Notes: generated from the letters alone by a model not told the origin. 64,000 bases of DNA from Planctomycetota bacterium (GCA_004376375.1 SOJX01000096.1:20557-84556); one strand, 5' to 3'. Counted from the first letter of the stretch, positions 13,476 to 60,421 are shown. Numbers and translations are program-made.

Positions 13476-14870
13476 ATGATTCGCAAACTCCTCCTTTCCG
13501 CATGCATACTTGCGATTGCTCTTGCCTTTTTGCCGCTTGCGCAGGCCAAACTCAGCTCGGCCGAATGGAAGAAAGCCAAGAGCAACCTTGACAAGCTGCT
13601 GAGGGCGGGCGAGGCAGGTAAAGCCCAACTCCCCGACGCGATAAGAAAAGTAGCCGACGACAATTCAGACCGCGCAGTCAAACTGCTGCTCACAGTCGGG
13701 CTGAGGGTTGAAGACTCCGCGGTATATGAAGCGACAAAGTCCGCGCTCTCCTCGATAACGGACCCCAAGGGAATGAAGGCTATCCGCAAGGAGCTCGAGC
13801 GCAAGAGCGACAAGAACTGGCGGATAAAGGTAATACTCGTCGAAGTCGTCGCCCGCATGCTGGGACGCGAGAAAATCAGGATAATATCCGACATCGCCGC
13901 GAACGAGACCAAGCAGGAAGTGCTTCGCGCGGTAATAAGGGCATGCAGAATCATCGACACCAAGGAAGTGATTTCCCCGCTGATCGAGCTGGTGAGGCGT
14001 TTCGAGAAGCTCAAAGGCAGCGTATGGATGGACTCCCGCGACGCGCTGTTCGCCATCACGGGCGGCGAAGATTTCGACTGCGCCGCAGACTGGAAACAGT
14101 GGTGGGACGGCGAGAAGGCAACCTGGAAAAAACCAAGCGAGGAAGATAAGGAAAAAGAAGAATCGGGCGCAAAAGGGGAGTCAGAGGGTTACAGGACGTC
14201 CCCGCGCAAGGCGCCGAGATTTTTCGGCACCGAAGTCACTTCAAAGCTTGTCGTTTTCGTGCTCGATACATCCGGCTCGATGAAGATCAAAGACCCCGGT
14301 GAAAACCCCGAAGATGAAGATGAAAAACCCGACACGCGAACAACCGCGGACCCGAAAAAGAAAAAGCAAAGCGGAGGCGGCGGCAAGGCGGGGAAGCAGA
14401 AACTGCCCGACCACCGGATGAGGGTAAAACGCGCCCAGAAAGAACTTATTAAGTGCATAAAAGCCCTGGATCCCAACGTGGAATTCAACATAGTTACCTA
14501 CGACTCAACCACAACTACATGGAGCAGGTCTGGCCTCAAGGTCGCGAGCGCTGCAAACAAGAAAGACGCTATCAAATACGTCAAGAACTTTCAGCCCAAA
14601 GCCACGACCCACACCGATGACGCCATCATCCGCGCGTTCAAGGAAAACCCGAAGGCCGACACCCTGATTTTGCTCTCCGACGGCTGGCCGACCCACAAAG
14701 GCGATAACAGCGACTGCAAGGAGATTATCGACCGCATCTGGAAGTTTCTGGCAAAAGCCAACAAGTTCCGCCGCGTCAGAATATTCACATTCGGCTTTGT
14801 AGACGCCCACCGCGCATTCATGGTGGAGCTGGCACGCAAGAACGGCGGCAAGTACAAAGATATCAAGTAG
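13476..14870 (+). CDS. Secreted protein with N-terminal HEAT-like repeats and a C-terminal von Willebrand factor A (vWA) domain
   Basis: Signal peptide. VVFVLDTSGSM MIDAS motif (DxSGS). 464 aa. Confidence 0.65.
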   Translation: MIRKLLLSACILAIALAFLPLAQAKLSSAEWKKAKSNLDKLLRAGEAGKAQLPDAIRKVADDNSDRAVKLLLTVGLRVEDSAVYEATKSALSSITDPKGMKAIRKELERKSDKNWRIKVILVEVVARMLGREKIRIISDIAANETKQEVLRAVIRACRIIDTKEVISPLIELVRRFEKLKGSVWMDSRDALFAITGGEDFDCAADWKQWWDGEKATWKKPSEEDKEKEESGAKGESEGYRTSPRKAPRFFGTEVTSKLVVFVLDTSGSMKIKDPGENPEDEDEKPDTRTTADPKKKKQSGGGGKAGKQKLPDHRMRVKRAQKELIKCIKALDPNVEFNIVTYDSTTTTWSRSGLKVASAANKKDAIKYVKNFQPKATTHTDDAIIRAFKENPKADTLILLSDGWPTHKGDNSDCKEIIDRIWKFLAKANKFRRVRIFTFGFVDAHRAFMVELARKNGGKYKDIK

Positions 14871-15014
14871 TTATCGCCCCGGGCCCGAAATGTAACGTTT
14901 ATGTAATACCTTCAAAGGCGGCATTTTTCACTACATTATTCCCCTTTTTAATCGTATAATTCCTAGAGGGAAAAGGTAAATATCTGCCGTATTCGAATAT
15001 CAAGGAGATATAAA

Positions 15015-15746
15015 ATGCGCGTACAAAAAAACCTCCAGTTTCTGCTTGGAGTAGCTATCCTTGCAATGGGCATAGTTCTTCTTATGACCCCATGCGCAAC
15101 AGGGTGAGGCGGCGGTGGAGCCCGGCGTCCGCCGTCGCGGCCGCCAGTAAGCCCGCCTCCAGGAGGAGGAGGACAACCCAGCAGCACACCCGACAGTCAA
15201 TGGCCCGAACCTGACCACGCACCACCGCCATCCACCGACGAAGACAAAAGTGGTGACAAAAGCGACGAAGGCGGTTCGAAAAGCAAAGTAACAAAGAAAC
15301 CCAAGGTGACCATCTTCGACGAGTTCGAAGGACTTGACAGCAAACGCGAAGATAAGCCCGTCATTTTCTTCTTCTACATCGAGGCCACGTCGCAGAAAGA
15401 CCGCAGCAAGCCGGTGCTGAATTCTCAACAGATGGCCAGGATGCTTGCGCACCCGAAAGTTTCCAATCAATTGAGCGAGTTCAGCTGCTACCGGCGCAAT
15501 TACAAAAAGACCAAGAAGGCCATTCGTAAGAAGTACAAGGTCAAGACCGCGCCGATGCTTGTCGTATTCGACGCCACCGGCAAGGTGATCTTCAGGACTA
15601 CGAGCTTCAAGATCAAGCCTGAAAGACTGGTGGCAACGCTCAAGAAGCTGGTCAAGAAATCTGAAAAGAATCTTGAGAAGTTCCAGAAGAAGCGCGAAAA
15701 GGATGAAGAAAAAGCTGCAAAAAAAGCTGAGAAAGAAAACGAATAA
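15015..15746 (+). CDS. Trx-fold paralog 0: signal peptide, in-frame TGA (15105-15107), Gly/Pro linker, thioredoxin-like domain, Lys-rich tail
   Basis: ATG at 15015 after GGAGA. MRVQKNLQFLLGVAILAMGIVLLMTPCATG-[TGA]-GGGGARRPPSRPP... continues in frame into the table ORF 15306..15746. Confidence 0.5.
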
Positions 15747-15772
15747 CAATTTACGACCCGACTGAACTAATG

Positions 15773-15805
15773 CTGAGCCCGGTCAAAGCCGGGCTCAGTT
15801 TCTTT
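15773..15805 (+). terminator. Rho-independent terminator after paralog 0
   Basis: ctgagcccggtcaaagccgggctcag hairpin followed by a T-rich run. Confidence 0.6.
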
Positions 15806-16009
15806 AATTGCCTTTTACATTACACAATCTGATTCTTCCACATAACTTACTGAGGTCAGCATAGATATACGCGCTGCTTCATTCCGTTGCCCCAGGCGTG
15901 AAAAGCCGGACTGGAAAGTCTGTCTATTTATGCCCTAAATGTCCTTTTACCGGCGCAATACAATAACTGTCACGTTTTTGTAATAATTGGATACAAATGT
16001 AATTCAAGC

Positions 16010-16038
16010 TTGTCATAGCAGAATTTCCGGGATATAAT
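16010..16038 (+). promoter_or_regulatory. Sigma70-like promoter of paralog 1 (TTGTCA-17-TATAAT)
   Basis: TTGTCA at 16010-16015, TATAAT at 16033-16038. Conserved TTTTGTAATAA box 24 nt upstream (15976-15986). Confidence 0.5.
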
Positions 16039-16129
16039 AGGAACAGATAAGGGAAGAAAGGTGTAAGGTTATATAGATGGTTTGATCTATGGCTCCGTTC
16101 GCCGAAGAACGGCCATGGAGGGAGGACCA

Positions 16130-17017
16130 ATGCAACGCACACTAGTTTTATTTATCGCGGCCCTGGCCATCACTGTTATGGCCCTGGACCTTCCCGCATA
16201 TTGCTGAGGTGGCGGAGGAGGATCGCGACCGCCGGCGCGGCCGCCAGCAAGACCGCCGACTCCACCTCCGGCACCGCCTCCGCGTCCGCCGAGTACGCCA
16301 CCGCCGAGCACACCGAGACCGCCGAGTACGCCACCGCCGAGCACGCCGACTCCGCCGAGGACGCCGACTCCGCCTCCAAGGCTGTCGACGCCTATTCCGC
16401 CAAGAGCTCCTGTAACGCTCGGCTGGCCGGAAGCGAAGCCGGTAGCGAACCCGACGCCGAAGAACGAGCCGACCATTACCGGCCGCGGCATCTTCGGTAA
16501 AAAGGACGGCAAAGCGGGAAAAGCGGAAAAATCGGCGAACAAGGTTATCGTCAAAAAGAAGGTGAAAATAACCTGCTTCGACGACTTCGACGCGCTGAAG
16601 GGCAAGGAAGAGAACAAGCCGGTCGTCATTTTCGTGTACTGGCCCGACAGGACCGACGACGCCGGCCGCACCTCAAAGCTCTATGCAAACTGCCAGAAGA
16701 TGATTGAAGTCCTTGCCAACGCGGACGTGCAATCCGCGCTGAGACAGTGTCAGTGCTACAAAGTGAATTTCCAGGGGCTTGACAAATCGCGCCGCAAACG
16801 TTACGGCGTGAAATCCGTACCGACGCTGCTCTTCATCGACGCAACCGGCAAGGTTCTCAAGAGACTTACATCACCGCGGATAAAACCCGCGAGCCTGGTT
16901 CGGCTGATACTGACCGTCGTCAAGAAGTCGGACAAGAACATGGAGAAGCTCGAGAAGAAGCGCGAAAGAGCCGCGGAAAAGGCAGCGGAAAAGGCAGCGG
17001 AAAAGGAGCGATCTTAG
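16130..17017 (+). CDS. Trx-fold paralog 1 with in-frame TGA at 16205-16207
   Basis: GGAGGGAGG RBS. MQRTLVLFIAALAITVMALDLPAYC-[TGA]-GGGGGSRPPARPP... No in-frame ATG for 357 nt after the TGA, yet that stretch is conserved at protein level with the other copies. In frame with table ORF 16562..17017. Confidence 0.55.
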
Positions 17018-17065
17018 CGCCGACACTCGGCGGCCTCTGAACAGGCTGCAACTTTACCGGAACCG

Positions 17066-17097
17066 AAAGCCCGGGATTTATCCCGGGCTTTATTTTT
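17066..17097 (+). terminator. Rho-independent terminator after paralog 1
   Basis: aaagcccgggatttatcccgggcttt followed by ATTTTTGG. Confidence 0.65.
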
Positions 17098-17177
17098 GGC
17101 CTCTCCAAGGCCCGAAAATCGCATTATTTGCCTTGTGTAACAGTTTTGTAATAACAGATAATACTGCCCTAACTTAC

Positions 17178-17206
17178 TTGCATCCCGGCCCGCCATGTCT
17201 TAAAAT
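17178..17206 (+). promoter_or_regulatory. Sigma70-like promoter of paralog 2 (TTGCAT-17-TAAAAT)
   Basis: TTGCAT at 17178-17183, TAAAAT at 17201-17206. TTTTGTAATAA box at 17144-17154. Confidence 0.5.
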
Positions 17207-17261
17207 ACAGTGACAGCTAAAAGGTATATTACGAACCAGAGTCCGATAAGAAGGAGAACTT

Positions 17262-18074
17262 ATGAAAAAGCTGCCAATAATATTTATTGCTGCGCTGGCC
17301 ATCACCGTAATGGCCCTGGACCTTCCCGCATACTGCTGAGGCGGCGGAGGAGGATCGCGGCCGCCGGCGCGGCCGCCTGCAAGACCGCCGACACCAAGAC
17401 CGCCATCAAATCCCGGTGGTAACCCGGGTGGCAGTAATCCGGGTGGTGGAGGCACGCCAATGGTACCTACGGGTTCTAAACCGAGTATCAATTGGCCGGA
17501 AGCCAAACCAGTCGCCAACCCGACTCCCAAATCCGAGCCCACGACCACGGGCAGAGGGATTCTCGGGAAAAAAGACGACAAAACTGACGAGAAATCCGGC
17601 TCCAAAGTCATCGTCACCAAGAAGCCGAAAATTACCTGCTTCGACGACTTTGACGCGCTGAAGGGCAAGGAAGAGAACAAGCCAGTTGCCATTTTCGTGT
17701 ACTGGCCGGACCGGACAAACTCAAAAGGCCAGACGTCGAAGGCGTACCAGAACAGTCAGAAGATGATTGACCTCCTTGCCAAGTCTGCGGTTCAGTCGGC
17801 CTTCCGCGAGCTTAACTGCTACAAGGTGAACTACAAGTCGCTCGACAAGTCGCGCCTCAAACGCTACGGCGTGAGAGGCGCGCCGACGCTGCTCTTCATC
17901 GACGCGACCGGCAAGGTTCTCAAGAGAATCACCTCTTCGCGGATCAAGGCTGCAAGTCTTGTGAAACTGATCAAGACCGTTGTCAAGAAATCAGACAAGA
18001 ACCTTAAAAGGCTTCAGAAGAAGCGCGAAAAGGCAGAAGAGAAAAAAGCAAAAGAGGAAGAAGAGAAGAAATAA
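17262..18074 (+). CDS. Trx-fold paralog 2 with in-frame TGA at 17337-17339
   Basis: AAGGAGA RBS. MKKLPIIFIAALAITVMALDLPAYC-[TGA]-GGGGGSRPPARPP... In frame with table ORF 17460..18074. Confidence 0.55.
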
Positions 18075-18112
18075 GAAAACAGCTTCTTCCAGTACAATGG
18101 CAGATTAACTTC

Positions 18113-18146
18113 AAAGCCCGGGACTCGTCCCGGGCTTTTGTTTTTC
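18113..18146 (+). terminator. Rho-independent terminator after paralog 2
   Basis: aaagcccgggactcgtcccgggctttt followed by GTTTTT. Confidence 0.65.
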
Positions 18147-18198
18147 CACAGCAGGTTTATGAAAGACAAGCGGGTACAGTGTTTCCCGAAAGTTAGTT

Positions 18199-19173
18199 CT
18201 ACTGGGAATGAGTCTTGAAGAAATCCCAGATAACGGTGTTGGCGTCCATATCGCGGCAGGTTTTGCCGACCAGCCATTCACCCAGATACTGCCATCCGCC
18301 GGGCCAGGTGTGACCGCCGCCTACCACTTCATAGTAAACGACCTCCGAGCCGCTCAAACCATTGCCGTATACATCCCGCCGCACCAGCGTTCCGTCGTCG
18401 GGGTCCAGGTCGGGCAGCCATGTAACGGTCGGCGCCGGATCGCACACGTTGTTGCTCACCCAGTAATTGACCGTATTTGCCGCCGATATGACGCGCCCCA
18501 TTCCGGTGATGCCGAGGATTACTATATCCCCGCCGCCGAAGGGAACCATCGGATCCTCAACGCCGACCATGATCAGGATGGGAATCGGGCCCATCGGCGT
18601 GAGCAGCGACAGGTTTTCGGTAAGCGAGCCGCAGACCGGGGCGACGGCGGCGAACCTGTCGGACGCTTCAATGCCGAGGCGGTGGGACATGAAGGAACCG
18701 TTGGATATCCCGGTCGCGTACACGCGCTTGCGGTCGATATTATAACTATCGTCGAAGTAATCGATAAGGGTGGAGAGGAAACCCACGTCGTCGACATTAT
18801 AGAGGTGCGAAGCGTAGTCCTCTATGCCGCGCCCGTCGTTCCATTGCTTTTCGTAAGCGTCCGGGTAAACGACGATGAATCCTTCGCTTTCCGAGAGCGT
18901 GTCGAAACCTCCCTGCGTAAGGGCTATCATCCTGTCGCCGTTACCGCCGCCGCCGTGAAGGGCGAAGACCAGCGGCTGTTCATCCGCGTAAGTCCACGAC
19001 GCGGGAACATGGTACTCGAAAGTCCGCGTCAGGCCTATGTGCTGTATCGAATCCTTGTGGTCTCCGGGGCCGATAGAAGGGCCGGCCGGAGGGAAGAAAA
19101 GGTTGCTTTTCTTTTTCCTGCAGGCGGGTACAAGAAGCGCGAAAAAAAGGAGCGTGAAAGTCATATAACGCAT
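18199..19173 (-). CDS. Lipoprotein esterase of the PHB-depolymerase/LpqC-like alpha/beta-hydrolase family
   Basis: Signal with lipobox LLVPACRKK. FALHGGGGNG and GISNG (GxSxG nucleophile elbow) motifs. 324 aa. Confidence 0.5.
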   Translation of the reverse strand: MRYMTFTLLFFALLVPACRKKKSNLFFPPAGPSIGPGDHKDSIQHIGLTRTFEYHVPASWTYADEQPLVFALHGGGGNGDRMIALTQGGFDTLSESEGFIVVYPDAYEKQWNDGRGIEDYASHLYNVDDVGFLSTLIDYFDDSYNIDRKRVYATGISNGSFMSHRLGIEASDRFAAVAPVCGSLTENLSLLTPMGPIPILIMVGVEDPMVPFGGGDIVILGITGMGRVISAANTVNYWVSNNVCDPAPTVTWLPDLDPDDGTLVRRDVYGNGLSGSEVVYYEVVGGGHTWPGGWQYLGEWLVGKTCRDMDANTVIWDFFKTHSQ

Positions 19174-19283
19174 TTTTTATCCTCTGGCCTTGGATATAAT
19201 TCAATCATCAGGCGAGGCACGTCATCGCTTTAATATATCATACAACACCGCATTAAACAAGGTTGCAGAATCTTCAACCCCGT

Positions 19284-20276
19284 TTACGGCGAATCCGTCA
19301 CGTCCGCTTTGCGCACGTCCGTTCCGTCGCTCCAGGTGCCGAGGTGGCGCTGCTTACCGGTGCCATCGAGCCCGTAAGCGCGGTTCCTCCCTTTTACGGC
19401 GAAATCGGAGAGCGCGTCGAACCACTTCCAGAATCCGTACCAGTCCAACGCGTCCGGTCTGAAAAACGACCCCGCCAGAGGCGCAAAGTGGCCCGCGACC
19501 AGAGGCGGTTCTCCGTGCTCGTCGGTATGGACTGTAATGAAATCCTTGTTTTCGAGACTAACCTGCGTCGCTCCGAAAAATATTTTTTTTGCAATCCGAT
19601 TCCCGACCATCCTGTCGTCCGCGCCGACAACCAGGAGCATCAGCGTGTCGGACGGGATGCGCGCGTAATCCTCGAGCGAAGATACCGGACCTCCCGGCTC
19701 GACGCACATCATGGCCCGGATTTTCGGGAGGTTCTCTCTCTCGGCGAGGGCGGCGATGTTCGCGGTCAGAACCCCGCCCATCGAATGCCCCAGCGCGCAG
19801 ACATTGTCGAGCTGTGGCGATACATGGCCTGCTTTTTTGAGTTTGGCAATTGCCGATTTTATCGCGCTTATCGCGTTCGGCGTAAAGTGTCTGGCACGCG
19901 TGAAAATCGAATTCTGGTAACGCGGGTAGATTACAACAGACCCCCGCCGCACGATGTGCTTTATCCATTCAAGGTAAGACCTCGGATTCATCGCACCCCA
20001 GCCGTGATTGAAGATTACGACGGGCGCGCTTTTCGGCTTCGGGTCCGCGGGCTCGAACAGCCAGTACCGCGTCCCTCCCGTGCCGTGGTGACTTTTCGTT
20101 ACGGACCCGTGCGCATACTCGGACGACCCGGGCCCGCTTTTCGGCTGCACCGGAGGAGTAATATCGCCGGTGTAAATGCCAGCCGGTTTATCTGCGAACT
20201 TGCAGCCGCTCCCGACCACCGCCGCGAAGAGCAGGACGACGAAGATGCCGGGTTTGAGTGGTAGAAATGTTTTCAT
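19284..20276 (-). CDS. Lipoprotein alpha/beta-hydrolase (lipase/esterase-like)
   Basis: Signal with lipobox VVGSGCKF. GHSMGG nucleophile motif. 330 aa. Confidence 0.5.
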   Translation of the reverse strand: MKTFLPLKPGIFVVLLFAAVVGSGCKFADKPAGIYTGDITPPVQPKSGPGSSEYAHGSVTKSHHGTGGTRYWLFEPADPKPKSAPVVIFNHGWGAMNPRSYLEWIKHIVRRGSVVIYPRYQNSIFTRARHFTPNAISAIKSAIAKLKKAGHVSPQLDNVCALGHSMGGVLTANIAALAERENLPKIRAMMCVEPGGPVSSLEDYARIPSDTLMLLVVGADDRMVGNRIAKKIFFGATQVSLENKDFITVHTDEHGEPPLVAGHFAPLAGSFFRPDALDWYGFWKWFDALSDFAVKGRNRAYGLDGTGKQRHLGTWSDGTDVRKADVTDSP

Positions 20277-20309
20277 TTATTAAGGCACCTTTGAGAATGC
20301 ATGCGAAGT

Positions 20310-21401
20310 TCAATAGCGCAGCAGGGCTGCGATATTGCCGACTTCGGTCAGGCCCGGAATCGGGTCGACGAAGTCCGCTTCCGCACCGGATGATGCGAGC
20401 AACTCGATTATCTCGTTGACAAGGTCGATTTTAAAAATTGACTGCGAGCCGCATTTGGAACAGGCCGCATGCGCTCCCTCGTCCAGATGATCGCAGTCGC
20501 GGCAGCGGATGCCGTCTATCCGAACATCGCGGCTGACGACAACCTTGCTGACCCGCCCCGCTTTCGCCGCGTCGAGCACGTCCGCGGCGCCGACGGTTGC
20601 CTTGCCTTTACGACAGTATTCGTTCCTGATCCGCTCCCAGAGCCTTTCTTCGGAGCGGCGTTCCTCGTCGAAGTACAGGTCGAATATTTCCCGGTTGATA
20701 CAATGCTCGCCTTCGGACAGGTTCATGGCCTTTTCGCCGACAAGTTTCCTGGCGAGATGGGCCGGAAGCACCCGCTTGATTTCAGCCAGCGTTTCCCTCG
20801 ACCCGGCCATAAGGATGCGGCGGAAGCTCTCGCTCCGGTCCAGTTCCTTAAGCCTGTCGACGATATCCTTGGCGTAATGATGAAGCTGTTTGTCGCGCCT
20901 GCGCTCGTAGCGCTGCTGCGACCAGCCGCCTTTCCGCACGTGGTTTTTTATATTCCCCCTGACTCGCTCCTCGGACTCGGCCTTCGCGGACACGACCAGA
21001 TAAATGCGGGCGGATTTATTGTCGGCGACGACCACCGCGAAATTCTCGTATTCGTCCTGCAGTTCGGCCAGCGGACGGATATAGGGCGAGGAATCAACGA
21101 TTAATAAATCGGGCATATCTACTTCAATCGGAAAGGCCTTGAAATAATCCAGCGCCCAGCAGGCGAAAATGCATATCCCGCCGGACTCGACCGGATTCTT
21201 CTTCAGGTATTTTTCCACAAGCTCGATGTTCTCATCGAAGTATTCCGCTTCGTCCCTGTTATCCCGTAAAAGAGAGCGCGTGTTCCCGATGCGCTTCCCC
21301 AGCGATTCCAGCGCTCCGGCATCGGAAAGGTAGAGGCTCAGAAACGCGCGGTCCGGCGCCGTTACTTTCGCCAATTCGCGCAGGTTGATTTTGTCGAACA
21401 T
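20310..21401 (-). CDS. Hypothetical protein, tentatively eRF1/Pelota-like (bacterial aeRF1-type), with a C-terminal C4 zinc ribbon
   Basis: 363 aa. Central KGGWSQQRYERRRD loop reminiscent of the eRF1/Dom34 central-domain loop. C-terminal CRDCDH...CSKCGS zinc ribbon. Assignment is by motif impression only. Confidence 0.3.
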   Translation of the reverse strand: MFDKINLRELAKVTAPDRAFLSLYLSDAGALESLGKRIGNTRSLLRDNRDEAEYFDENIELVEKYLKKNPVESGGICIFACWALDYFKAFPIEVDMPDLLIVDSSPYIRPLAELQDEYENFAVVVADNKSARIYLVVSAKAESEERVRGNIKNHVRKGGWSQQRYERRRDKQLHHYAKDIVDRLKELDRSESFRRILMAGSRETLAEIKRVLPAHLARKLVGEKAMNLSEGEHCINREIFDLYFDEERRSEERLWERIRNEYCRKGKATVGAADVLDAAKAGRVSKVVVSRDVRIDGIRCRDCDHLDEGAHAACSKCGSQSIFKIDLVNEIIELLASSGAEADFVDPIPGLTEVGNIAALLRY

Positions 21402-21464
21402 GATATGACCGGCCTCCTATTGCTCTGTTACGCCTGATGTGATAAGTAGGCCGTCAATGCGAGG

Positions 21465-21590
21465 AGCGAAGCGACGTAGCAATCTCAGACTAGGTTACAG
21501 GTTACAGGTTACAGGTATCAGAATATATTTTTTACCTGTTACCTGTCACCTGTTACCTGATTTGTCGGCAGCTTTGCTACCTCCTCGCAA
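21465..21590. repeat. Nested intergenic palindrome built on GGTTACA heptad repeats
   Basis: Inner arms CAGGTTACAGGTTACAGGTA / TACCTGTTACCTGTCACCTGTTACCTG. Outer arms ttgcgaggag...gtagcaa / ttgctacctcctcgcaa. Confidence 0.7.
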
Positions 21591-21634
21591 TGACCTGTAC
21601 ATATCATTTGAGGTGTAACGGAGTACTAGTTATC

Positions 21635-22219
21635 TTATCTCCTCAGTTCTTTCCATGTCTTTCCGCCGTTGGCGCGGATGAAATCTGCAATCGCTTCGTG
21701 CCGCAATAACTGCGCCCAGTCAAGGGGCGCACATCCGAATTCGTCTTTTGTATTGATGTCGGCCTTCATTCTTACCAGCGACTCAACAAGGTCCTTGTTT
21801 TTTTCCCGTATCGCCCAGAACAGCGGCGTCCAGTCGTCTTCATCTCTCGCGTCTATTTCCGCGCCTTTGTCGATCAGCAGCATCGCAACGTCATTCCATT
21901 TATTCCTTGCGGCCAGGTGCAGGGGGAAGCTCTTAAACATGCTCTTTGGCACCAGGGTGTTGACATGTTCCCAGTGTTCTGCCAGGAATTCCGCTGCCTT
22001 CTCGCCGCCTTCCAGTTCCCCCGCCAGCACATCGAAGCCTTTCCTGCCTTTGCCGAGCAGCCAGCTGACGGATTTCACCCTCTCTTTCGCGTCATTGGAA
22101 TGCAGACAGGAGGCGTTCCACAATATTCTCACCGGCGTCCACAGCAGGCAGGTCGCTATCACGGCCGCGAAAAGCAGGACGACGAAGATAGTGAGCTTGA
22201 GAGGCAGCGAAAGCTTCAT
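21635..22219 (-). CDS. Ankyrin-repeat protein with N-terminal signal/anchor
   Basis: Three or four ankyrin repeats (LHLAARNKWNDVAMLLIDKGAEIDARDEDDWTPLFWAIREKNKDLVESLV...). The N-terminal 19 aa are nearly identical to those of the 19284..20276 gene. Confidence 0.65.
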   Translation of the reverse strand: MKLSLPLKLTIFVVLLFAAVIATCLLWTPVRILWNASCLHSNDAKERVKSVSWLLGKGRKGFDVLAGELEGGEKAAEFLAEHWEHVNTLVPKSMFKSFPLHLAARNKWNDVAMLLIDKGAEIDARDEDDWTPLFWAIREKNKDLVESLVRMKADINTKDEFGCAPLDWAQLLRHEAIADFIRANGGKTWKELRR

Positions 22220-22309
22220 TTATTCTCTTTTGTCTCTTTTTCGGATTTCTTTTCAGGTTCTGGAACAGGGAGAGTAATTTCCGTGATTTCCTCGACCTTG
22301 AGTGAATCC

Positions 22310-23410
22310 TTAATCGGTATAATGAGCAGGCGCGGTTTTTTTTCCCGTAAGCTGAAGGACAAACCTGCTTCGGTCGCCGGATGAATTGTATAATTCAAAG
22401 CGGTCACCCGGTTTGCTTGGTATGTCCAGAATCACTTTTCGGCCTTTTTCAGTGTGGACGGCGAGAACGATCTCACTGGGCACTTTATCTTCCCTGTCCG
22501 CTTCTTTTTCTGAATCCTCATCATCGCTTTTCGGCTCGGGGATATTCTTCAGCTCTATTGCGTATATCCTGTCTTTAATCATTACAGGCGGCCCCAGAAT
22601 ATTTTTTGAATGACCAATCCAGAGGAGTTTGCCCGTTGAAAGGTCAAATACGCCGAGTTCGCTTATGCGGTCGAGCTTGTATGATATATTATGACTGCCG
22701 TATCTGACGCCGAGAACAATCTTTTTGTGGTCGCTGGAGACTCTTGTGAATATCATCATCTGATCTTTCACTTTAATAATCTTGTCGAGTTCCGGTTTGC
22801 CGATTGTCACCATTTTTTTGGCGCCGGGTGAATAGACTTCGATTTTCTGGAAAGCCCAGCCGAGCAGTTTTTTCGACTCGTCTTCGGGATCTTCAGTTAT
22901 AATACGGAGAAAACAGCCGTCGCCCGCGTTCCATGCATGATAATCCAGAGTGGTTATAATATTCGAAAGGTTATCAAGGGAGTAGACTGTTGTTTTCCAT
23001 TTTTCTTCTTCTTCCTTGCAAGGGACGTAAAGCGCGTTCCCGCCGTCGAAGGTTCCTGTAAAAATGAAAAGCTCGCTGGCTTTTATGGATGTTTCCGTGC
23101 ATTCTCCGGTTGCAGGATTCACCAGCCAGTAAGGACCATCGTCGTTGCTGTTTACCTTCTCGCTGCCTATCAACAGATTACTTTTAATCCATCTAAGGCC
23201 TTTCGGCTCCCACCCTTCGGGAAGTTTCAGGTCTGTAACCTTTTTCGTCGCAAGCTCGACGACGTAAATTCTATTAAGGCCTTCCAAGACCATCACGTGA
23301 ACGGCCACGTACTTGCCGTCGGGCGAGAACTTGGGCAGGACGTCATATATGCATCCTGCAACCCATAAAAATATAAAGACAATAATTAGAAATCTGGTAA
23401 CCCTCAGCAT
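22310..23410 (-). CDS. Lipoprotein with TolB-like/WD40-like beta-propeller repeats
   Basis: N-terminal transmembrane/signal with WVAGC. Repeated PDGKYVA-type blades. The table ORF extends to 23452. Confidence 0.45.
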   Translation of the reverse strand: MLRVTRFLIIVFIFLWVAGCIYDVLPKFSPDGKYVAVHVMVLEGLNRIYVVELATKKVTDLKLPEGWEPKGLRWIKSNLLIGSEKVNSNDDGPYWLVNPATGECTETSIKASELFIFTGTFDGGNALYVPCKEEEEKWKTTVYSLDNLSNIITTLDYHAWNAGDGCFLRIITEDPEDESKKLLGWAFQKIEVYSPGAKKMVTIGKPELDKIIKVKDQMMIFTRVSSDHKKIVLGVRYGSHNISYKLDRISELGVFDLSTGKLLWIGHSKNILGPPVMIKDRIYAIELKNIPEPKSDDEDSEKEADREDKVPSEIVLAVHTEKGRKVILDIPSKPGDRFELYNSSGDRSRFVLQLTGKKTAPAHYTD

Positions 23411-23653
23411 TAATTGATCTCCATTTTGCTGAATACCGAACCACCTGACCACCGTATTCTATCCCGCATTAGAAAAGAATGCAACCAATAGCAGAAAAGC
23501 GATGCCTCAAGAACAGGCAAGATGAACAAAAAGCAGGTAAACAAAGCGAAAAACCGGCAAAAATGCATCATTTCGGACATCTGCATCACCAAATCTGCTC
23601 TATTTGGCTTATGTAAAGGTTTTGTAATAATAGACAGGCGTGTCCTAATATAC

Positions 23654-23683
23654 TTGAAATGATTATCCGCGCTCAATATAATA
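23654..23683 (+). promoter_or_regulatory. Sigma70-like promoter of paralog 3 (TTGAAA-18-TATAAT)
   Basis: TTGAAA at 23654-23659, TATAAT at 23678-23683. TTTTGTAATAA box at 23620-23630. Confidence 0.5.
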
Positions 23684-23725
23684 GGTTTGAGGCTGGAACG
23701 GACCGCTCGCTGAAAGGAATTGAAA

Positions 23726-24523
23726 ATGCAAAAACTGCTTACCACATTCCTGCTCGCTATGTGTGCAGTCGGATTTGCCTTGGACAATGTGGCCTATGCT
23801 GCCGGCGGCTGTTGAGGCGGCGGTGGCACTCCGCGGCCGCCGGCGCGGCCACCTACGACTCCAAGACCGCCTGCAGGAAATCCCGGGAACCCCGGTACTC
23901 CCAGTACGGGAACTCCCATTCAGCCTCGTACGCCCGCAGAACTCAGCTGGCCTGAGGCCAAACCCGTTGCCGAATCGACCCCTGAAGTTGAGCCCACAAC
24001 TACGGGCAAGGGAATTCTCGGTAAAAAGGACGACAAGGGCAAAACGGCTGAAGGGGAAAAATCCGGCAACAAGGTCGTCGTTAAAAAGCGAGAAAAACCC
24101 ACCTGCTTCGACGACTTCGACGCGCTGAAAGGGAAGGAAGAAAATAAACCTGTCCTCCTTTTCGTGTACTGGCCTGACATGAAGGATTCCAAAGGCCGCA
24201 CTTCGAAGGCCTACGAGAACTGCCGGAAGATGATTGAACTCCTTGCCAGGTCGTCGGTCCAGTCAGCCCTCGAAAAGATAGACTGTTACAAAGTCAACTA
24301 CAAGTCGCTCGACAAGGCGCGCCTCAAACGCTACGGCGTGAAAGGCACGCCGACGCTGATTTTCATCGACGCGACCGGCAAGGTGCTCAAGAGGATCACG
24401 TCTCCGCGGATAAAGCCGTCAAACCTTATCCGGTTGATTAAGACCATCGTCAAGAAATCGGACAGGAACCTGGAGAAGCTTCAGAAGAAGCGCGAGAAGG
24501 AAGAGGAAAAGCAGTCCAAGTAA
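23726..24523 (+). CDS. Trx-fold paralog 3 with in-frame TGA at 23813-23815
   Basis: MQKLLTTFLLAMCAVGFALDNVAYAAGGC-[TGA]-GGGGTPRPPARPP... In frame with table ORF 24164..24523. Confidence 0.55.
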
Positions 24524-24578
24524 GGCGATAAAGGCGAGTTTGCAGCCATAACAGACTACCAATAAAAGGGAGATTCCA

Positions 24579-25397
24579 ATGCGAAAACTGCTTATCCCGT
24601 TTGTACTCGCCTTATGCATAGTCGGATTTGCAGTAGATGATGTGACGCATGCATGCGACACCTGCGGCTGCGGTAAAAAAGGGCCTTGCGGTCCGAGCGG
24701 TGGCGGTGGCGGTGGTTGCTGAGGCAGCGGCGGCACTTCGAAGCCGCCGGTAGCTGGGCCTACCGGTAAAAACTCTCAGCCCGACAAGCCCATTGGCATC
24801 CCGTGGCCGGATGCAAAACCGGCATCTGAAGAAACGGTCACCGGCAAAGAAATCCTCAAGAAGAAAGACGACAAGGCCGCGGCCGGCAAAACCGATACCG
24901 GCAAAAACGCGGCAGAAAAGGGCGGAACCGACCCGAAAAAGGCGACCTGTTTCAACGACTTCGACGCGCTCAAAGGCAAGGAGTTGAAAAAGCCGATCCT
25001 TCTCTATTTCTACTGGCCCGAGGACAAGGCTTCGAAAAGCCGGGCGCAATACCGCGATTGTCAGAAGATGAACAAACTGCTTTTCGAGGACCCGGACGTC
25101 AAGGATGAACTTTCCAAACTCGATTGCTACAAGGTTAACCTGTCCATACTGAGTAAAGAGCTCAAGAAACAGTACAAGATTAAGAGCGCGCCGACGCTGA
25201 TCTTCATCGACCCGACCGGAAAGGTGCTCAAGAAAAGCTCTTCAACCAGGACAAAACCTTCGAGAATGGTCCGCCTGATAAAGTCGGTCGTCAAAGCCTC
25301 CGCCCGCAACCTGAAGCGGTACAAGAAAAAACTGGCGCAGGAAGAGAAAAAGGAAAAACCGCAGGCAAAGGAGGAAGACGAAGCCAAGGCCAAATGA
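24579..25397 (+). CDS. Trx-fold paralog 4 with in-frame TGA at 24720-24722; extra Cys cluster before the TGA; probably co-transcribed with paralog 3
   Basis: GGGAGA RBS. ...HACDTCGCGKKGPCGPSGGGGGGC-[TGA]-GSGG... In frame with table ORF 24984..25397. No separate promoter in the 55-nt gap after paralog 3. This copy ends with TGA. Confidence 0.5.
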
Positions 25398-25452
25398 TAC
25401 AAGCGCCTCGTTTCACCGGCCGCATAACCAGCCTTGCGGCCGACGTATTGGC

Positions 25453-25486
25453 AAAGCCCGGGATAAAACCCGGGCTTTTTTTCTGC
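25453..25486 (+). terminator. Rho-independent terminator after paralog 4
   Basis: aaagcccgggataaaacccgggctttttttc. Confidence 0.65.
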
Positions 25487-25570
25487 AGAAATTGCCTTTG
25501 GCTCCAATTATATAATCAGTATGTTTTCACGTCGGAGTCTATTCTTTCGGTATGCCCGTTAAACAGGCTC

Positions 25571-25608
25571 TTAACTTCAGACTTTTAACTTTGAACTTTG
25601 AACTTCTG
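25571..25608. repeat. AACTTTG heptad tandem repeat between convergent genes
   Basis: ttaacttcagacttttaactttgaactttgaacttctg. Confidence 0.5.
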
Positions 25609-25609
25609 C

Positions 25610-26305
25610 CTACCTGTAGACTTTGACGAGCATGCGGAGGAAACGCAAAGTATCGCGGGCGGGTCTGATGGTGGACTGTTCGTCGCCGTAGACGCAGCTT
25701 ATCGGGACTTCCGCGAAGCGAAAACCGCGGCGGGCGGCGCGGATCAGAATCTCCGACTCGAATGCATAACGTGAAGAAGAATACTTCACACCCATGACAA
25801 CCCGCGGGCGAATAAGCCGGTATCCGGTCTGAGTATCGGATATGCCAGGTCCGCCAAGAATGGAAAGTAAAAGAGACTGGGAACGGTTGACGGCCCGGCG
25901 GTGAAGCGGCATTTCTTTCGGATTGCGGAGCCTGTTGCCCAGGACGATATCCGCGCCCGTCTGGGTCATTTTGTCTATAAAGCGGGGCATTTCTTCGGGG
26001 AGGTGCTGGCCGTCGGCGTCGAGAGTGAATGCGGCGTCAAATCCTTTATGTCCGGCAAGCTGCAGGCCCTTTATCAGCGCAACCCCCTTTCCGCGATTGC
26101 GCTCGAATCTGACAACTTCGGCACCCGCCGAGGAAGCAACATCGGAGGTATCGTCGCTCGAACCGTCGTCGATAACCCAGACGTCGTGGAGGTAACGCTT
26201 CACGCGGCGCACCACGTCGGCAATGTGCTTACCCTCGTTGTATGCAGGAATAACAGCGCAGCAGGTCAGTTCAGAGGTGAGTGAATCGGCCGCACAAGTG
26301 GCCAT
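25610..26305 (-). CDS. GT2-family glycosyltransferase (polyprenol-phosphate sugar transferase, DPM1-like)
   Basis: CAVIPAYNE...VWVIDDGSSDDT...NRGKG motifs of GT2 dolichyl/undecaprenyl-phosphate glycosyltransferases. 231 aa. Confidence 0.65.
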   Translation of the reverse strand: MATCAADSLTSELTCCAVIPAYNEGKHIADVVRRVKRYLHDVWVIDDGSSDDTSDVASSAGAEVVRFERNRGKGVALIKGLQLAGHKGFDAAFTLDADGQHLPEEMPRFIDKMTQTGADIVLGNRLRNPKEMPLHRRAVNRSQSLLLSILGGPGISDTQTGYRLIRPRVVMGVKYSSSRYAFESEILIRAARRGFRFAEVPISCVYGDEQSTIRPARDTLRFLRMLVKVYR

Positions 26306-26308
26306 ATC

Positions 26309-28906
26309 TTACTTCTTTTTTTCTTTACCCGCCTTCTTGGCGGGCTTTTTCCTGGACGGCGACGCTTTCTTCATGCTCTTTGTGGTCTTACACGCGGGAT
26401 AGCCGGAGCATGCGAGGAACTTGCCGCGCGGACCGCTCTTTATAACCATTTTCTTGCCGCAGTTTTCGCAGACTTCATCTGTTTCCGGCTCTTTTTCCTT
26501 TTCTTCCTTCTCCAGCGTCCGAGTATTGCGGCATTTCGGATAACCGCTGCAACCGATAAAGCGCGCACCGCCCCGCCCCACGCGGTAGACCAGAGGCTTC
26601 CCGCATTTTTCACACATTTCCCCGGTCTCTTTGGGCGGTTCCTTGGCTTTCTTACCCGCAATTGGCTTCGTGTTCTTGCAGTTCGGATACGCGGAGCATG
26701 CCCAGAAGCGTCCGCGCCGGGAAGCCTTCACAACCATCTGGCTTCCGCATTTATCGCATGTCGGCGCCTCTTCATCCTCCCCGGTCTTTCCGCCGATGGG
26801 GCGGGTATTCTTACAGTCGGGATATGCCGAGCAGGCGAGAAACTTGCCGCGCCTCCCTGCCTTTACGACCATGGGACTGCCGCATTTCTCACACTTCTCC
26901 TCCCCCTCGCCGGGCTTTTCTATTTCACCGTCCTCATTGATTGAAAGAGTTGTCTTGCATTTCGGATATCCGGTACATGCGAGGAAGCGCCCGTGCTTTC
27001 CCGTTCGGATAACCATCGGTTCGCCGCAGTTGGGGCATTTATGGTCGGTCGGCTCCGGCTCGGTTCGGGAGCCGTTAAGCGACATCGCCGTTTTACATTT
27101 CGGGTATTTCGAACATCCGAGAAAACGGCCCCGTTTGTTCAGTTTATACACCATAGGTGAGTTGCACTTGGGACAAACCTCCTCGGATTGCTCCGGGTCT
27201 TTGTTTATATTCGTCATTTCCTTTTTTGCATGTTCGAGTTCAGAAGAAAAGGGCTCGTAAAACTCCCTGAGCAGTCCGACCCAATCGCCCTCGCCCTCCT
27301 CTATGCTGTCGAGACTGTCCTCCAGTTTTGAAGTAAACTCGAGGTTCATAAGCTTGGGAAAGTGCTTCACCAGTTTCTCGGTAACGGCAATCCCGAGGTC
27401 GCTGGCATGGAGCTTGCGTTCGCGGTCCTCGACGTAACCGCGCTGGATAATCGTTGAAAGGATGTGCGCATACGTAGAGGGCCGGCCGATCCCTTCCCGC
27501 TCCAGGGCCCTGACGAGCGAAGCCTCGTTATAGCGCGGCGGCGGCTGGGTAAAATGCTGCTCCGGCGATATCTCGTCCAGCGAAACGCCGTCGCCTTCGG
27601 CAACGTCAGGCAGCGTCTGGTCCTCTTTTTTGCCCTTCGTGCCCGTCAGTTTCGTATAGCCGTCAAACTTTGTAATGCGGCCCGTCGCCCGGAGGAGGAA
27701 CCTGCCGCCTGTGATTTCAACCGTCGTCACGGCATAAACGGCAGGATGCATCTGGCTGGCTACGAACCGCTCCCAGATCAGCGTATAGAGTTTATGCTGA
27801 TGGGGGGTCAAGAACTGCTCCACCTTTTCGGGCATGTACCCGACCTGCGTCGGGCGGATCGCCTCGTGCGCCTCCTGTGCGCCTTTTTTCGACTTATAGG
27901 TGTGGGGCGCCTCGGGAAGGTACTTTTCGCCAAACACCTTGTTGATATGGCCGCGCACCTCCTCGATAGCCTCGCCGGCGACATTAACGGAGTCGGTCCG
28001 CATATACGTGATAAGTCCGACCGGCCCCTCCTCGCCGATATCCACTCCCTCGTAAAGCTGTTGGGCCAGCATCATCGTCTGCTTGGGGTGGAAGCGGAAC
28101 CTGGTGGACGCCTGCTGCTGGAGCGTGGAAGTCGTGAAAGGGGGCGAGGGGTTGTCCTGCTTGTCTTTCTTATCGACAAGTGTAATTGTAAAGTTCTGTT
28201 TCCCAATGTCTTTGACCGTTTTTTCGGCCTCTGCCTGAGATGAAATTTTAGGGTCCTCTTTATCGATTTTCTTCAAATCGACAATAAACGGAGTGTCCCG
28301 GTGCTTATCCGGAAGGGCTTTCGCTTTTACTTCCCAATACTCCTCCGGTTTGAAACCCTGGATTTCCTTTTCCCTCTCCGCCACCATGCGCACGGCGACG
28401 GACTGCACGCGCCCGGCGGAAAGGCCTCTCCAGAATTTTTCCCATAAAAGCGGTGAAAGCTGATAGCCCACGATCCGATCCAGGATTCGCCTGGCCTGCT
28501 GGGCGTTGACCTTGTTCATCGATATCTTGCCGGGGTTCTCAAAGGCTTTCAAGATGGCTTTTTTGGTTATCTCGTTGAAAGTCACGCGGAAAAGCTTCTT
28601 ATTCGGCAGCCTGAGGGCCTTGGCGATATGCCATGCAATCGCCTCACCCTCACGGTCGAGGTCGGGGGCAAGGTAAACCGCATCCGCTTCCTTTGCCGCT
28701 TTCCGCAGTTCGGCCAGTACTTTGGCCTGCCCGCGAATGGTCTTATAGGTGGGTGTAAAATCACTTTCAATATCAATGCCCAGCTCTTTGGGTGGAAGAT
28801 CGCGGACATGGCCTTTCGACGCCTTTACAACATATTTCCCACCAAGATACTTGGTTATGGTTTTAGCCTTGGTCGGTGACTCGACAATTACCAGTGGTTT
28901 CCCCAT
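26309..28906 (-). CDS. topA: DNA topoisomerase I with six tandem C-terminal C4 zinc ribbons
   Basis: MGKPLVIVESPTKAKTI...KGHVRDLP Toprim start. Type IA core throughout. Six repeats of CxxCGxxM...RGxFxxCSxYPxCK in the C-terminal 300 aa. Confidence 0.9.
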   Translation of the reverse strand: MGKPLVIVESPTKAKTITKYLGGKYVVKASKGHVRDLPPKELGIDIESDFTPTYKTIRGQAKVLAELRKAAKEADAVYLAPDLDREGEAIAWHIAKALRLPNKKLFRVTFNEITKKAILKAFENPGKISMNKVNAQQARRILDRIVGYQLSPLLWEKFWRGLSAGRVQSVAVRMVAEREKEIQGFKPEEYWEVKAKALPDKHRDTPFIVDLKKIDKEDPKISSQAEAEKTVKDIGKQNFTITLVDKKDKQDNPSPPFTTSTLQQQASTRFRFHPKQTMMLAQQLYEGVDIGEEGPVGLITYMRTDSVNVAGEAIEEVRGHINKVFGEKYLPEAPHTYKSKKGAQEAHEAIRPTQVGYMPEKVEQFLTPHQHKLYTLIWERFVASQMHPAVYAVTTVEITGGRFLLRATGRITKFDGYTKLTGTKGKKEDQTLPDVAEGDGVSLDEISPEQHFTQPPPRYNEASLVRALEREGIGRPSTYAHILSTIIQRGYVEDRERKLHASDLGIAVTEKLVKHFPKLMNLEFTSKLEDSLDSIEEGEGDWVGLLREFYEPFSSELEHAKKEMTNINKDPEQSEEVCPKCNSPMVYKLNKRGRFLGCSKYPKCKTAMSLNGSRTEPEPTDHKCPNCGEPMVIRTGKHGRFLACTGYPKCKTTLSINEDGEIEKPGEGEEKCEKCGSPMVVKAGRRGKFLACSAYPDCKNTRPIGGKTGEDEEAPTCDKCGSQMVVKASRRGRFWACSAYPNCKNTKPIAGKKAKEPPKETGEMCEKCGKPLVYRVGRGGARFIGCSGYPKCRNTRTLEKEEKEKEPETDEVCENCGKKMVIKSGPRGKFLACSGYPACKTTKSMKKASPSRKKPAKKAGKEKKK

Positions 28907-49036: not shown

Positions 49037-49990
49037 TTATCGATTCTCGAACTTTGTGCCGGCGTGGAATTCCTCGAGGTATACCTCGGCGCCTCGCGCG
49101 GCCGTGGCGCCCTCCCCGACGGCAACTGCAATCTGCTTGAACAGGTTGGCGCGGATGTCGCCGCAGACGAAAAGTCCGCGCGTCTTTGTTTCCATCGACT
49201 TACCTGTACGGATAAAACCGAGCCTGTTCCTGGCCACCGGAACCTTGATGAAATCCGTCTTCGCGAGAAAACCGACGAAGATAAAGCAGCCTTCGACGTC
49301 CAGGCTTCCGGCTTCTTCCGTCTTGACATTCTTCAGCGCTACGGACTTCAACAGGTCCTCGCCGCAAAATTCCGTTACAACTGTATCCCAGTGTACTTTT
49401 ATTTTATCGTTTTTTGCAGCCCTCGCGGCAAGGCCCGGGTCCGCCCGGAGCTTGTCGCGCCTGTGGATAATGTGAACCGCATCGGCGAAACGCGTAAGAA
49501 ACAGGGCCTCCTCGACGGCGGAGTCGCCGCCCCCGACAACGGCAACCTGCCTGCCGCGGTAAAGCGGGCCGTCGCACGTCGCGCAGTACGAAATACCCTT
49601 GCCGGAGTACCTGTCGTGGCCGGGCACATTGTACTGCCTGCGCTCGACGCCGGTGGCGACAATCACCGATTTTGCATCGAGTTTTTCGGAATCAGTCTCG
49701 ACCATGAACTCGCACTCGTCCTGTTTTTCAATCGAACTCACGGCCGCGGTCTTTATCTCGGCGCCGAACCGCCTGGCCTGCTCCGCCATCGCGCTTGAAA
49801 GCTCCATTCCCGTTACAGGCTTTGGGAACCCCGGATAGTTCTCAATCTCGAAAGTCTCGTTCATCATACCGCCGGGAAGCCCTTTCTCGAGAACAACCGT
49901 CGTGAGCTCCGAGCGTGAGGCATATATGGCGGCCGTCAGGCCCGCAGGCCCGCCGCCGACGATTACGACATCGTAACAGGACGCGTCCAT
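49037..49990 (-). CDS. trxB: Thioredoxin-disulfide reductase
   Basis: VVIVGGGPAGLTAAIY FAD motif. CATCDG redox-active disulfide. Second GGGDSA NADPH motif. 317 aa. Confidence 0.85.
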   Translation of the reverse strand: MDASCYDVVIVGGGPAGLTAAIYASRSELTTVVLEKGLPGGMMNETFEIENYPGFPKPVTGMELSSAMAEQARRFGAEIKTAAVSSIEKQDECEFMVETDSEKLDAKSVIVATGVERRQYNVPGHDRYSGKGISYCATCDGPLYRGRQVAVVGGGDSAVEEALFLTRFADAVHIIHRRDKLRADPGLAARAAKNDKIKVHWDTVVTEFCGEDLLKSVALKNVKTEEAGSLDVEGCFIFVGFLAKTDFIKVPVARNRLGFIRTGKSMETKTRGLFVCGDIRANLFKQIAVAVGEGATAARGAEVYLEEFHAGTKFENR

Positions 49991-59853: not shown

Positions 59854-59874
59854 CGGAACCTCGGCTCGGTGGGT

Positions 59875-60147
59875 TTAGCGGATCAACTGCTCCATCAGGC
59901 GGCCAGGTTTGAAAGTAACGACCTTCCTTGGAGGAACGTTTACGATATCCCCGGTGCGGGGGTTGCGGGCGACTCTGCCGTTGCGTTCTTTAACTTTGAA
60001 AACGCCGAAATTGCGAAGCTCGATCTTGCCGGTCTTGACAAGAGTCTCGATTATGGTGTCAAGCATTCCCTGAACGATCTCCTTGACTTCAAGCTGGGTC
60101 AGGCCGTATTTTTCAGCAAGCATTTTCACAATTTCTTTTTTTGTCAT
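59875..60147 (-). CDS. HU/IHF-family nucleoid-associated DNA-binding protein
   Basis: 90 aa. MTKKEIV...RNPRTGD...FKPG signature arm. Confidence 0.85.
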
Positions 60148-60421
60148 GATGACTCCCCTATGAAAACCGGATCGCGTAAACCCGGAAAATTTGTAATGAC
60201 TACAGCATAAGCTGCATACCCGATTTTACAACTCGGCAGGCAATTTTCGAAAACCGTTTCTGGAAGGAATAGCCCGCCCCCGCCGGCACTTTGCGGAGCG
60301 CCCGAACTTCTTATATATCCAAGTACGCTTCCGAAGTCAAGAAAAAATATAATCCGGGCAACAGGAATATACGACACCTCCGCGGGAATGCCCGTAAACC
60401 GCCTGATCTTCTTGATTTTCG

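Follow-up and report, generated by a model that had tools for sequence, protein, structure and literature searches.

In a 64,000-nt stretch of DNA from a Planctomycetota bacterium (GCA_004376375.1, SOJX01000096.1:20557-84556; the whole stretch is called the window here), five paralogous genes, copies 0 to 4 (c0-c4), each carry an in-frame TGA codon just after the sequence for a signal peptide, followed by an RNA hairpin within the coding region. We consider it probable that c0-c4 encode exported selenoproteins and that this hairpin, referred to as the distal hairpin to distinguish it from a second one closer to the UGA, acts as the bacterial selenocysteine insertion sequence (bSECIS) element for the in-frame UGA, a reading derived from sequence analysis. 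Elements of this type are known; the family of exported selenoproteins in which this probable one lies is apparently undescribed. The genes share a common layout, in which a Shine-Dalgarno sequence and an ATG are followed by a hydrophobic signal peptide, a Cys, and 0-3 residues further on the in-frame TGA; beyond it come a run of Gly, the motif RPPxRPP (in c0-c3), a long low-complexity stretch rich in Pro and Gly, and a C-terminal domain of ~150 residues.

Copy 2 (17262-18074, + strand, translated through the internal stop codon) begins with the ATG at 17262, which is preceded by a GGAG Shine-Dalgarno sequence, and reaches the in-frame TGA at 17337-17339 as codon 26, the putative codon for selenocysteine (Sec, U). 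Past this TGA the frame remains open as far as the TAA that ends at 18074, and the product consists, in order, of the signal peptide, a C-U pair with Sec as residue 26, GGGGG, RPPARPPARPP, the Pro/Gly-rich tether, and a thioredoxin-fold domain lacking CXXC. The annotated protein (P0001) includes only 17460-18074 of the gene, and the top database match is the hypothetical protein E3J72_14435 from a metagenome-assembled genome (MAG) of an uncultured member of the Planctomycetota. The hairpin of copy 2, the putative bSECIS, occupies 17357-17376 (+) and has the form GCGGCCGC-CGGC-GCGGCCGC, with 8 perfect pairs and −17.1 kcal/mol. Its 5′ arm (17357-17364) begins 17 nt past the TGA, the CGGC loop (17365-17368) begins 25 nt past it, and the 3′ arm follows at 17369-17376. 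The arm sequence GCGGCCGC is itself palindromic and arises from the codons (x)xG-CGG-CCG-CC.

The remaining four genes lie on the same strand. Copy 0 (15015-15746) has a C-A-T-G-U motif with its TGA at 15105-15107 and a hairpin at 15124-15145 (+) of the form GGCGUCCGC-CGUC-GCGGCCGCC, with one U.C mismatch, −13.2 kcal/mol, and its loop at 15133-15136, 25 nt from the UGA. Copy 1 (16130-17017) has a C-U motif with its TGA at 16205-16207; its hairpin at 16225-16244 (+), GCGACCGC-CGGC-GCGGCCGC, contains one A.C mismatch (−9.9 kcal/mol; loop at 16233-16236). The C-U motif recurs in copy 3 (23726-24523; TGA 23813-23815), with a hairpin at 23833-23852 (+), GCGGCCGC-CGGC-GCGGCCAC, in which one C.A mismatch (−11.3 kcal/mol) lies outside a perfect 6-bp core at 23835-23850 with the loop at 23841-23844. 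In copy 4 (24579-25397; TGA 24720-24722), where a Cys-rich insert is placed ahead of the C-U pair, two hairpins can be drawn that overlap by 4 nt. The proximal one (24728-24749, +), CGGCGGC-ACUUCGAA-GCCGCCG with 7 bp, departs from the bSECIS consensus because its loop lies 12 nt from the UGA and does not start with a G, whereas the distal one (24746-24767, +), GCCGGUA-GCUGGGCC-UACCGGU at −9.5 kcal/mol, has its loop 30 nt from the UGA and so fits that consensus. A first-pass annotation of the window had described the perfect 8-bp stem of copy 2 exactly as we find it, together with equivalent stems in copies 1, 3, and 0 at the same coordinates as ours, for which it allowed at most one mismatch and we find one in each. 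For copy 4 it had chosen the proximal hairpin, and its 7 bp are correct, although the coordinates given (24727-24748, starting 6 nt after the TGA) need to be shifted by one, to 24728-24749 and 5 nt.

The published bSECIS consensus (PMC13188914 Fig. 2A) describes an apical loop of 3-9 nt on a stem of 4-16 bp, a G at loop position 1 or 2 with G or U after it, a distance of 16-37 nt from the UGA to the loop, and a free energy not above −7.5 kcal/mol. We coded these rules as a model ahead of fetching the last five of the 18 distinct family members described below. The model was passed by 14 of the 18 members; for TGA triplets picked at random from the window, the rate was 5.8%. The hairpin of copy 2 lies in the coding region, 3′ of a TGA (17337) that is in frame, and combines a 4-nt loop with 8 bp; copies 0, 1, and 3 have 6-8 model pairs with their single mismatches. 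Window copies have CGGC or CGUC as the loop, and distant members have GGCC, GUCC, GCCCG (L013), or CGUGUA (L009:2345). The distance from UGA to loop is 25 nt throughout c0-c3 and 30 nt in c4, and it falls between 19 and 34 nt in the 17 of 18 members that have a model hairpin, 13 of these 17 at 21-25 nt. All five window copies are below the energy limit, as are 14 of the 18 members. The remaining member without a model hairpin (L017) carries one resembling those of the main group at 34 nt, which fails the model rule. When all in-frame positions of each window copy were scored in the same way, including those in the Pro-rich linker, the best model hairpin was the one at the UGA site (P = 0.000).

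The choice of codons also favors the hairpin. Shuffling the synonymous codons within the first 90 codons of each gene gave P = 1.0 in L017 and values between <0.0025 and 0.27 in the other 17 genes; the values for the window copies were 0.025 (c0), 0.27 (c1), 0.003 (c2), 0.007 (c3), and 0.22 (c4). Combined over ten lineage representatives, L017 included, with one value for the whole main group and nine for other lineages, whose independence is assumed and only approximately true, P was 5e-6 by Fisher's and 3e-5 by Stouffer's method. Within the stems, 15 of 20 Arg codons are CGG, compared with 19 of 130 in the remainder of these genes (counts that ignore shared ancestry), and the commonest Arg codons, CGC, AGA, and AGG, do not occur within the stems at all. 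Two relatives that have no UGA (in L002 and L012) also have no model hairpin, even when the energy limit is relaxed to −3 kcal/mol.

The family beyond the window was difficult to recover, as word-indexed protein searches returned only 5 and 3 matches and an exhaustive profile search with hidden Markov models was needed, which gave 364 proteins at E ≤ 0.001. For relatives that appeared to be truncated at the N-terminus, the DNA was fetched from JGI, NCBI, ENA, and Logan assemblies and metagenomes, and in all of them a signal peptide, an in-frame stop codon, and a continuing frame were found. The 18 distinct members comprise the five window copies, L001, three copies in L005, L006, and L017, and a distant subgroup with ~30% protein identity (two copies in L009 and one each in L010, L011, L013, L015, and L016). 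A scan of genome contigs with the family profile yielded only L007 and L008, which encode ordinary CXXC thioredoxin-like proteins and were excluded as non-members. All 18 members have TGA, and none has TAA or TAG, as the stop codon just after the signal peptide, the position homologous to 17337-17339 of copy 2. The Sec motif is C-x(0-3)-U-GGGG in the main group and U-G-x(2-4)-C in most of the distant members, while L011 and L015 have no Cys near the U. Similarity extends across the U in a single frame, from the signal peptide upstream to the GGGG-RPP tether and the domain downstream, where gene callers begin the protein at inconsistent internal codons and without a signal peptide.

The two relatives without a UGA are P0052 and P0003. 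In P0052 (L012), the sequence AQ-C-C-GGG stands opposite AY-C-U-GGG of copy 2, which aligns a Cys with Sec; it is the single clear example, and its domain fits the family profile with E = 1.5e-11. P0003 (L002 6001-6729, identical in L003 and L004), on a different contig of a closely related assembly (GCA_030588815.1), reads AGC-RRPPRPP-C and keeps the RPP motif with the codons CGT CGT CCG CCG CGG CCT CCA, in which the hairpin is lost. P0003 and P0052 have 242 and 238 aa, respectively, and the read-through products 243-295 aa. A new selenoprotein family is expected to offer at least 10 examples, TGA in 100% of them, similarity that runs through the U, and lengths as in the members without Sec (bioRxiv 10.1101/2022.07.06.499078), and a Cys/Sec pair consists of a homologue with a Cys aligned to the UGA (PMC13188914); the family conforms to both.

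A trivial origin of the in-frame TGA, either as an artefact (pseudogenes or assembly errors) or through a genetic code in which every UGA stands for an amino acid (codes 4 or 25), deserves next to no credence. A reading of UGA as Gly (code 25) would agree with the run of Gly codons that follows it. However, TGA terminates 11 of 51 long open reading frames (ORFs) in the window, including copy 4 itself, whose true terminator is a second TGA at 25395-25397; a genome-wide reassignment is thereby excluded and the event is site-specific. The G+C content of the window (54%) and the presence of the same TGA in independent assemblies and metagenomes from four sources (JGI, NCBI, ENA, and Logan) likewise speak against such an origin.

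Several results weigh against selenoproteins with a bSECIS, some of them concerning the decoding of the UGA and others the hairpin. On the side of decoding, no selA, selB, selD, or tRNA-Sec gene was found in the 64-kb window, in ~10 kb of its left flank, or in the fetched loci, the sequence available for the search: ARAGORN detected no tRNA-Sec in the window and 13 loci, and Pfam and NCBIfam scans of ~45 window ORFs revealed no selA, selB, or selD and no known selenoprotein. Together with the fact that the database annotations call the downstream part only, this favors an account in which the UGA does not encode Sec, being either a real stop codon between a short leader peptide and a separately initiated protein or a site of leaky read-through by a standard tRNA, with a hairpin that is incidental or merely slows the ribosome. 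We regard this account as improbable: in all 18 members the reading frame continues past the UGA and the stop is invariably TGA, no consistent start codon or Shine-Dalgarno sequence follows the UGA and the part downstream has no signal peptide, a Cys is adjacent in most members and stands at the exact position in one relative, and the published expectations for a new selenoprotein family are borne out.

On the side of the hairpin, the minimum free energy (MFE) of the 66 nt after each UGA is not significantly lower than in dinucleotide shuffles (z = −1.1, −1.6, −1.7, +0.4, and −1.3), and synonymous recodings with the codon usage of the window fold equally well or better, most members being weaker than the mean of their recodings. 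The local MFE is unexceptional because Gly (GGN), Arg (CGN), and Pro (CCN) codons pair whatever codon is chosen. All stem differences among close paralogues are in third codon positions and break pairs (CGG to CGA or CGT, CCG to CCA) with no compensatory change, and synonymous-codon identity over the 22 codons after the UGA is marginally above that of the rest of the gene; shared ancestry therefore explains much of the similarity among the paralogues. The stems are built of palindromic codon pairs (CGG-CCG, CCU-AGG) in short peptide repeats, which tandem duplication could yield. Four of the 18 members (L009:2345, L010, L016, and L017) have a weak hairpin or none that fits the model, and Rfam gave nothing at gathering thresholds for the whole window and nothing at the hairpins at E values up to 10 (15000-17500). 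A competing structure also exists, a recurrent proximal hairpin (17340-17365 in the window, and equivalents) formed by pairing between the Gly codons that immediately follow the UGA and Pro codons further on, and this is the MFE fold in c0, c4, L010, L011, L016, and L017. The proximal hairpin overlaps the 5′ arm of the distal one, so that the two structures may alternate.

Judged from the window alone, the distal hairpin might have arisen as a side effect of the duplication of a peptide repeat. An alternative along these lines would have the UGA encode Sec while the hairpin merely follows from a tandemly duplicated palindromic repeat (CGGCCG or CCUAGG, encoding RPPxRPP or PRPR), with the SelB element located elsewhere, e.g., in the proximal hairpin of Gly and Pro codons. 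It would account for arms that always encode RPP and together form a 12-nt direct repeat (GCGCGGCCGCC(G)), for differences within the group that are mismatches only, for the unexceptional global MFE, and for the recurrence of the proximal hairpin, and when the same peptide is recoded at random with synonymous codons, 10-38% of the trials pass the consensus model. Nevertheless, we judge it unlikely. Later RPP repeats in the same linkers are written with AGA, CGT, or CGC and form no hairpin, in contrast to the CGG-rich stems, and the hairpin has disappeared from the UGA-less paralogue even though RRPPRPP was kept there. The proximal loops lie 8-13 nt from the UGA and thus outside the consensus range of 16-37 nt. 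This is within the stretch of mRNA that has already been unwound by a ribosome with the UGA in its A site.

L011 and L013 of the distant subgroup also speak against a mere repeat. Members of this subgroup have a tetraloop containing G[G/U] at 19-25 nt from the UGA on stems of other sequence. The hairpins are GCCUA-GGCC-UAGGC in L010 (25 nt from UGA to loop), CGGCCUA-GGCC-UAGGCCG in L015 (19 nt), GCCUA-GUCC-UAGGC in copy A of L009 (22 nt), and GGGUUA-GGCC-UAACCC in L011 (25 nt), the last encoding the non-repeat peptide RVRPNP. In L013, a different stem is found by eye at the same distance (CGGCC-CGUGC-GGCCG, loop at 26 nt), while the best call of the model is a 9-pair stem with the loop GCCCG at 23 nt. 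In an alignment of 13 hairpins, 88.6% of cells are paired, compared with 26-50% in controls with a slid register, changes on both sides occur in 5 of 8 pairs (e.g., C-G to U-A and C-G to G-C), and the covariation score is 0.43 compared with 0.11 in shuffles (0 of 500 reach 0.43), all of these being counts that lean towards structure, since the predicted loops served as the anchor of the alignment.

These results also decide how far the argument of the first-pass annotation carries. It held that the RNA structure is conserved beyond what the protein needs because the encoded residues differ; this is true of the flanking and loop residues, but both arms encode the same R-P-P tripeptides (RPPxRPP) in every copy, and with arms that all encode RPP and differences that only break pairs, the argument from close paralogues is weak. 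Two of the checks it proposed gave divided answers. Folding downstream of each TGA yields the unremarkable energies reported above, yet a hairpin of the consensus type at the right distance is more common there than at random TGAs. Covariation is missing among close paralogues and appears between subgroups in the loop-anchored alignment. Its conclusion, a bSECIS-like element serving the in-frame UGA, is nonetheless supported, on evidence beyond its own.

If the distal hairpin is the bSECIS, translation would begin at the ATG behind the Shine-Dalgarno sequence and yield the signal peptide, after which the ribosome would reach the UGA, which either adjoins a Cys or precedes one by a few residues. 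With the UGA in the A site, the distal hairpin, its CGGC or CGUC loop ~25 nt further on, would sit just outside the mRNA entry channel, where it may tether SelB-GTP-Sec-tRNA(Sec) so that Sec is inserted and termination is avoided. The ribosome would then melt the hairpin and translate it as the RPPxRPP start of the Pro-rich tether that runs to the thioredoxin-fold domain without CXXC. Both the binding of SelB to the distal hairpin and the insertion of Sec at the UGA are steps that we infer from the sequence.

The C-terminal domain was predicted by AlphaFold2 with a predicted local distance difference test (pLDDT) score of 85. A Foldseek search of this model against the PDB retrieved the C-terminal domain of DsbD and thioredoxins (E = 4e-6, probability 1.0, template modelling scores 0.5-0.7), which places the modelled domain in the thioredoxin fold. 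The CXXC or UXXC active site expected at the start of helix 1 is absent, as all members have YWPDRT or a similar sequence there. Matches to Pfam Thioredoxin_2 and to the NCBIfam DsbH/DsbD models are weak and all below their cut-offs, and none of the curated selenoprotein models of NCBIfam reaches its cut-off with the family proteins. The residues right before U or CU form AxG, AxA, or AxC motifs (AYC|U, AYG|U, QAAG|U, QATA|U, PALG|U), at which signal peptidase may cleave; cleavage right before U or CU would leave Sec at or beside the mature N-terminus, on the Pro-rich tether. Taken further, this gives a quite possible though tentative picture of an undescribed exported selenoprotein family of uncultured Planctomycetota, with up to five tandem copies per locus, in which a Sec that is N-terminal or nearly so in the mature protein is carried by a Pro-rich 'swinging arm' on a thioredoxin fold devoid of CXXC. 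The SECIS would be encoded by the first turns of this arm (RPPxRPP or PRPR), and consequently the peptide repeat and the RNA signal would co-evolve through palindromic codon pairs.

Should the selenoprotein reading hold, all five genes are mis-called and the databases contain truncated fragments without signal peptides, such as P0001, P0008, and P0009, of a selenoprotein family that is missing from Pfam and from the curated selenoprotein models of NCBIfam. The unusual architecture, with Sec right after the signal peptide, a Pro-rich tether, and a thioredoxin fold without CXXC, would suggest an extracytoplasmic arm for redox reactions or the handling of metals. The genes would also be a compact natural case of a SECIS that doubles as the coding sequence of a repeat peptide. 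The family is a possible test case for predicting SECIS elements in GC-rich, low-complexity coding DNA, where folding-energy statistics fail.

Further observations concern the individual genes and their surroundings. The insert in copy 4 (24654-24722) reads CDTCGCGKKGPCGPSGGGGGGCU, i.e., five Cys and the Sec, and resembles a metal-binding segment. An element TGTAAC-N5-TTTGTAATAA, with two TGTAA half-sites, is conserved before c0-c3 (14901-14919, 15966-15986, 17134-17154, and 23610-23630) and before orthologues in L001 and L005, ~45 nt upstream of a TATAAT-like box; TKTGTAATAM occurs 3 times compared with 0.17 expected. It is probably a common promoter or operator of the family, and copy 4, which starts 55 nt after copy 3, is without it. 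Region 1630-8888 of L005 (MAG GCA_054868705.1) is syntenic to 13476-28906 of the window and encodes a VWA protein, three UGA copies, a GT2 glycosyltransferase, and topoisomerase I. In its copy with the TGA at 3245, an additional ARPP repeat, written in the non-pairing codons GCA CGA CCG CCA, has moved the identical GCGGCCGC-CGGC-GCGGCCGC hairpin 9 nt downstream. In the window, the cluster of UGA genes is interrupted by a block at 18.2-23.4 kb with an eRF1-like gene, two hydrolases, and an ankyrin protein. The eRF1-like gene (20310-21401, − strand) matches Pfam baeRF_family10 at E = 1e-23 and the ribosome-hibernation-factor models of NCBIfam below their cut-off. As the block is missing at the syntenic locus in L005, this gene is not a conserved partner, but an eRF1-like gene beside recoded stop codons is a curious neighborhood all the same.

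Elsewhere in the window, an accessory gene of formate dehydrogenase, FdhD (60422-61249, −; TIGR00129, E = 1e-54), and a thioredoxin reductase (49037-49990, −; TIGR01292, above cut-off) were identified, and no catalytic subunit of formate dehydrogenase was found in the window. The region 57526-60210 holds overlapping long ORFs, one of 775 aa on the minus strand and two of 272 and 510 aa on the plus strand that are linked by the TGA at 58675, none with a Pfam match; the plus-strand pair was considered as a formate dehydrogenase near FdhD and dropped for lack of such matches. No other UGA read-through ORF with a model hairpin in the window was credible besides the five family genes.

Among known systems, the distal hairpin is closest to the bSECIS consensus (PMC13188914), with which it shares the position in the coding region 3′ of an in-frame UGA and all structural limits. 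It differs in a stem that is nearly pure G-C and formed by a 12-nt direct repeat of a palindromic unit without a bulged nucleotide, and in the competing proximal hairpin that overlaps its 5′ arm; SelB binding is putative here. The SECIS elements of Escherichia coli fdhF and fdnG likewise are hairpins directly after the UGA; a G followed by G/U is exposed in their small apical loop, and the hairpins are read as codons after Sec, but their sequences bear no likeness to the family hairpin. Unlike the latter, they have a bulged U and enclose the UGA in the lower stem. At the protein level, a Cys-Sec pair is found in the C-terminal GCUG of mammalian thioredoxin reductase. The CU-motif selenoproteins described by Haft (SaoB and the N-terminal extension of HgcA; bioRxiv 10.1101/2022.07.06.499078) also have vicinal Cys and Sec in a flexible segment outside a globular domain, and their genes are truncated at the UGA in databases as well; they belong to another protein family and fold, whereas the Sec of the present family directly follows the signal peptide on a Pro-rich tether. 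The C-terminal domain of DsbD and the thioredoxins (PDB 2fwf, 1vrs_D, and 2lst) share the fold of the C-terminal domain, but in the family the CXXC site is replaced (FVYWPDRT) and the candidate redox center is the N-terminal C-U.

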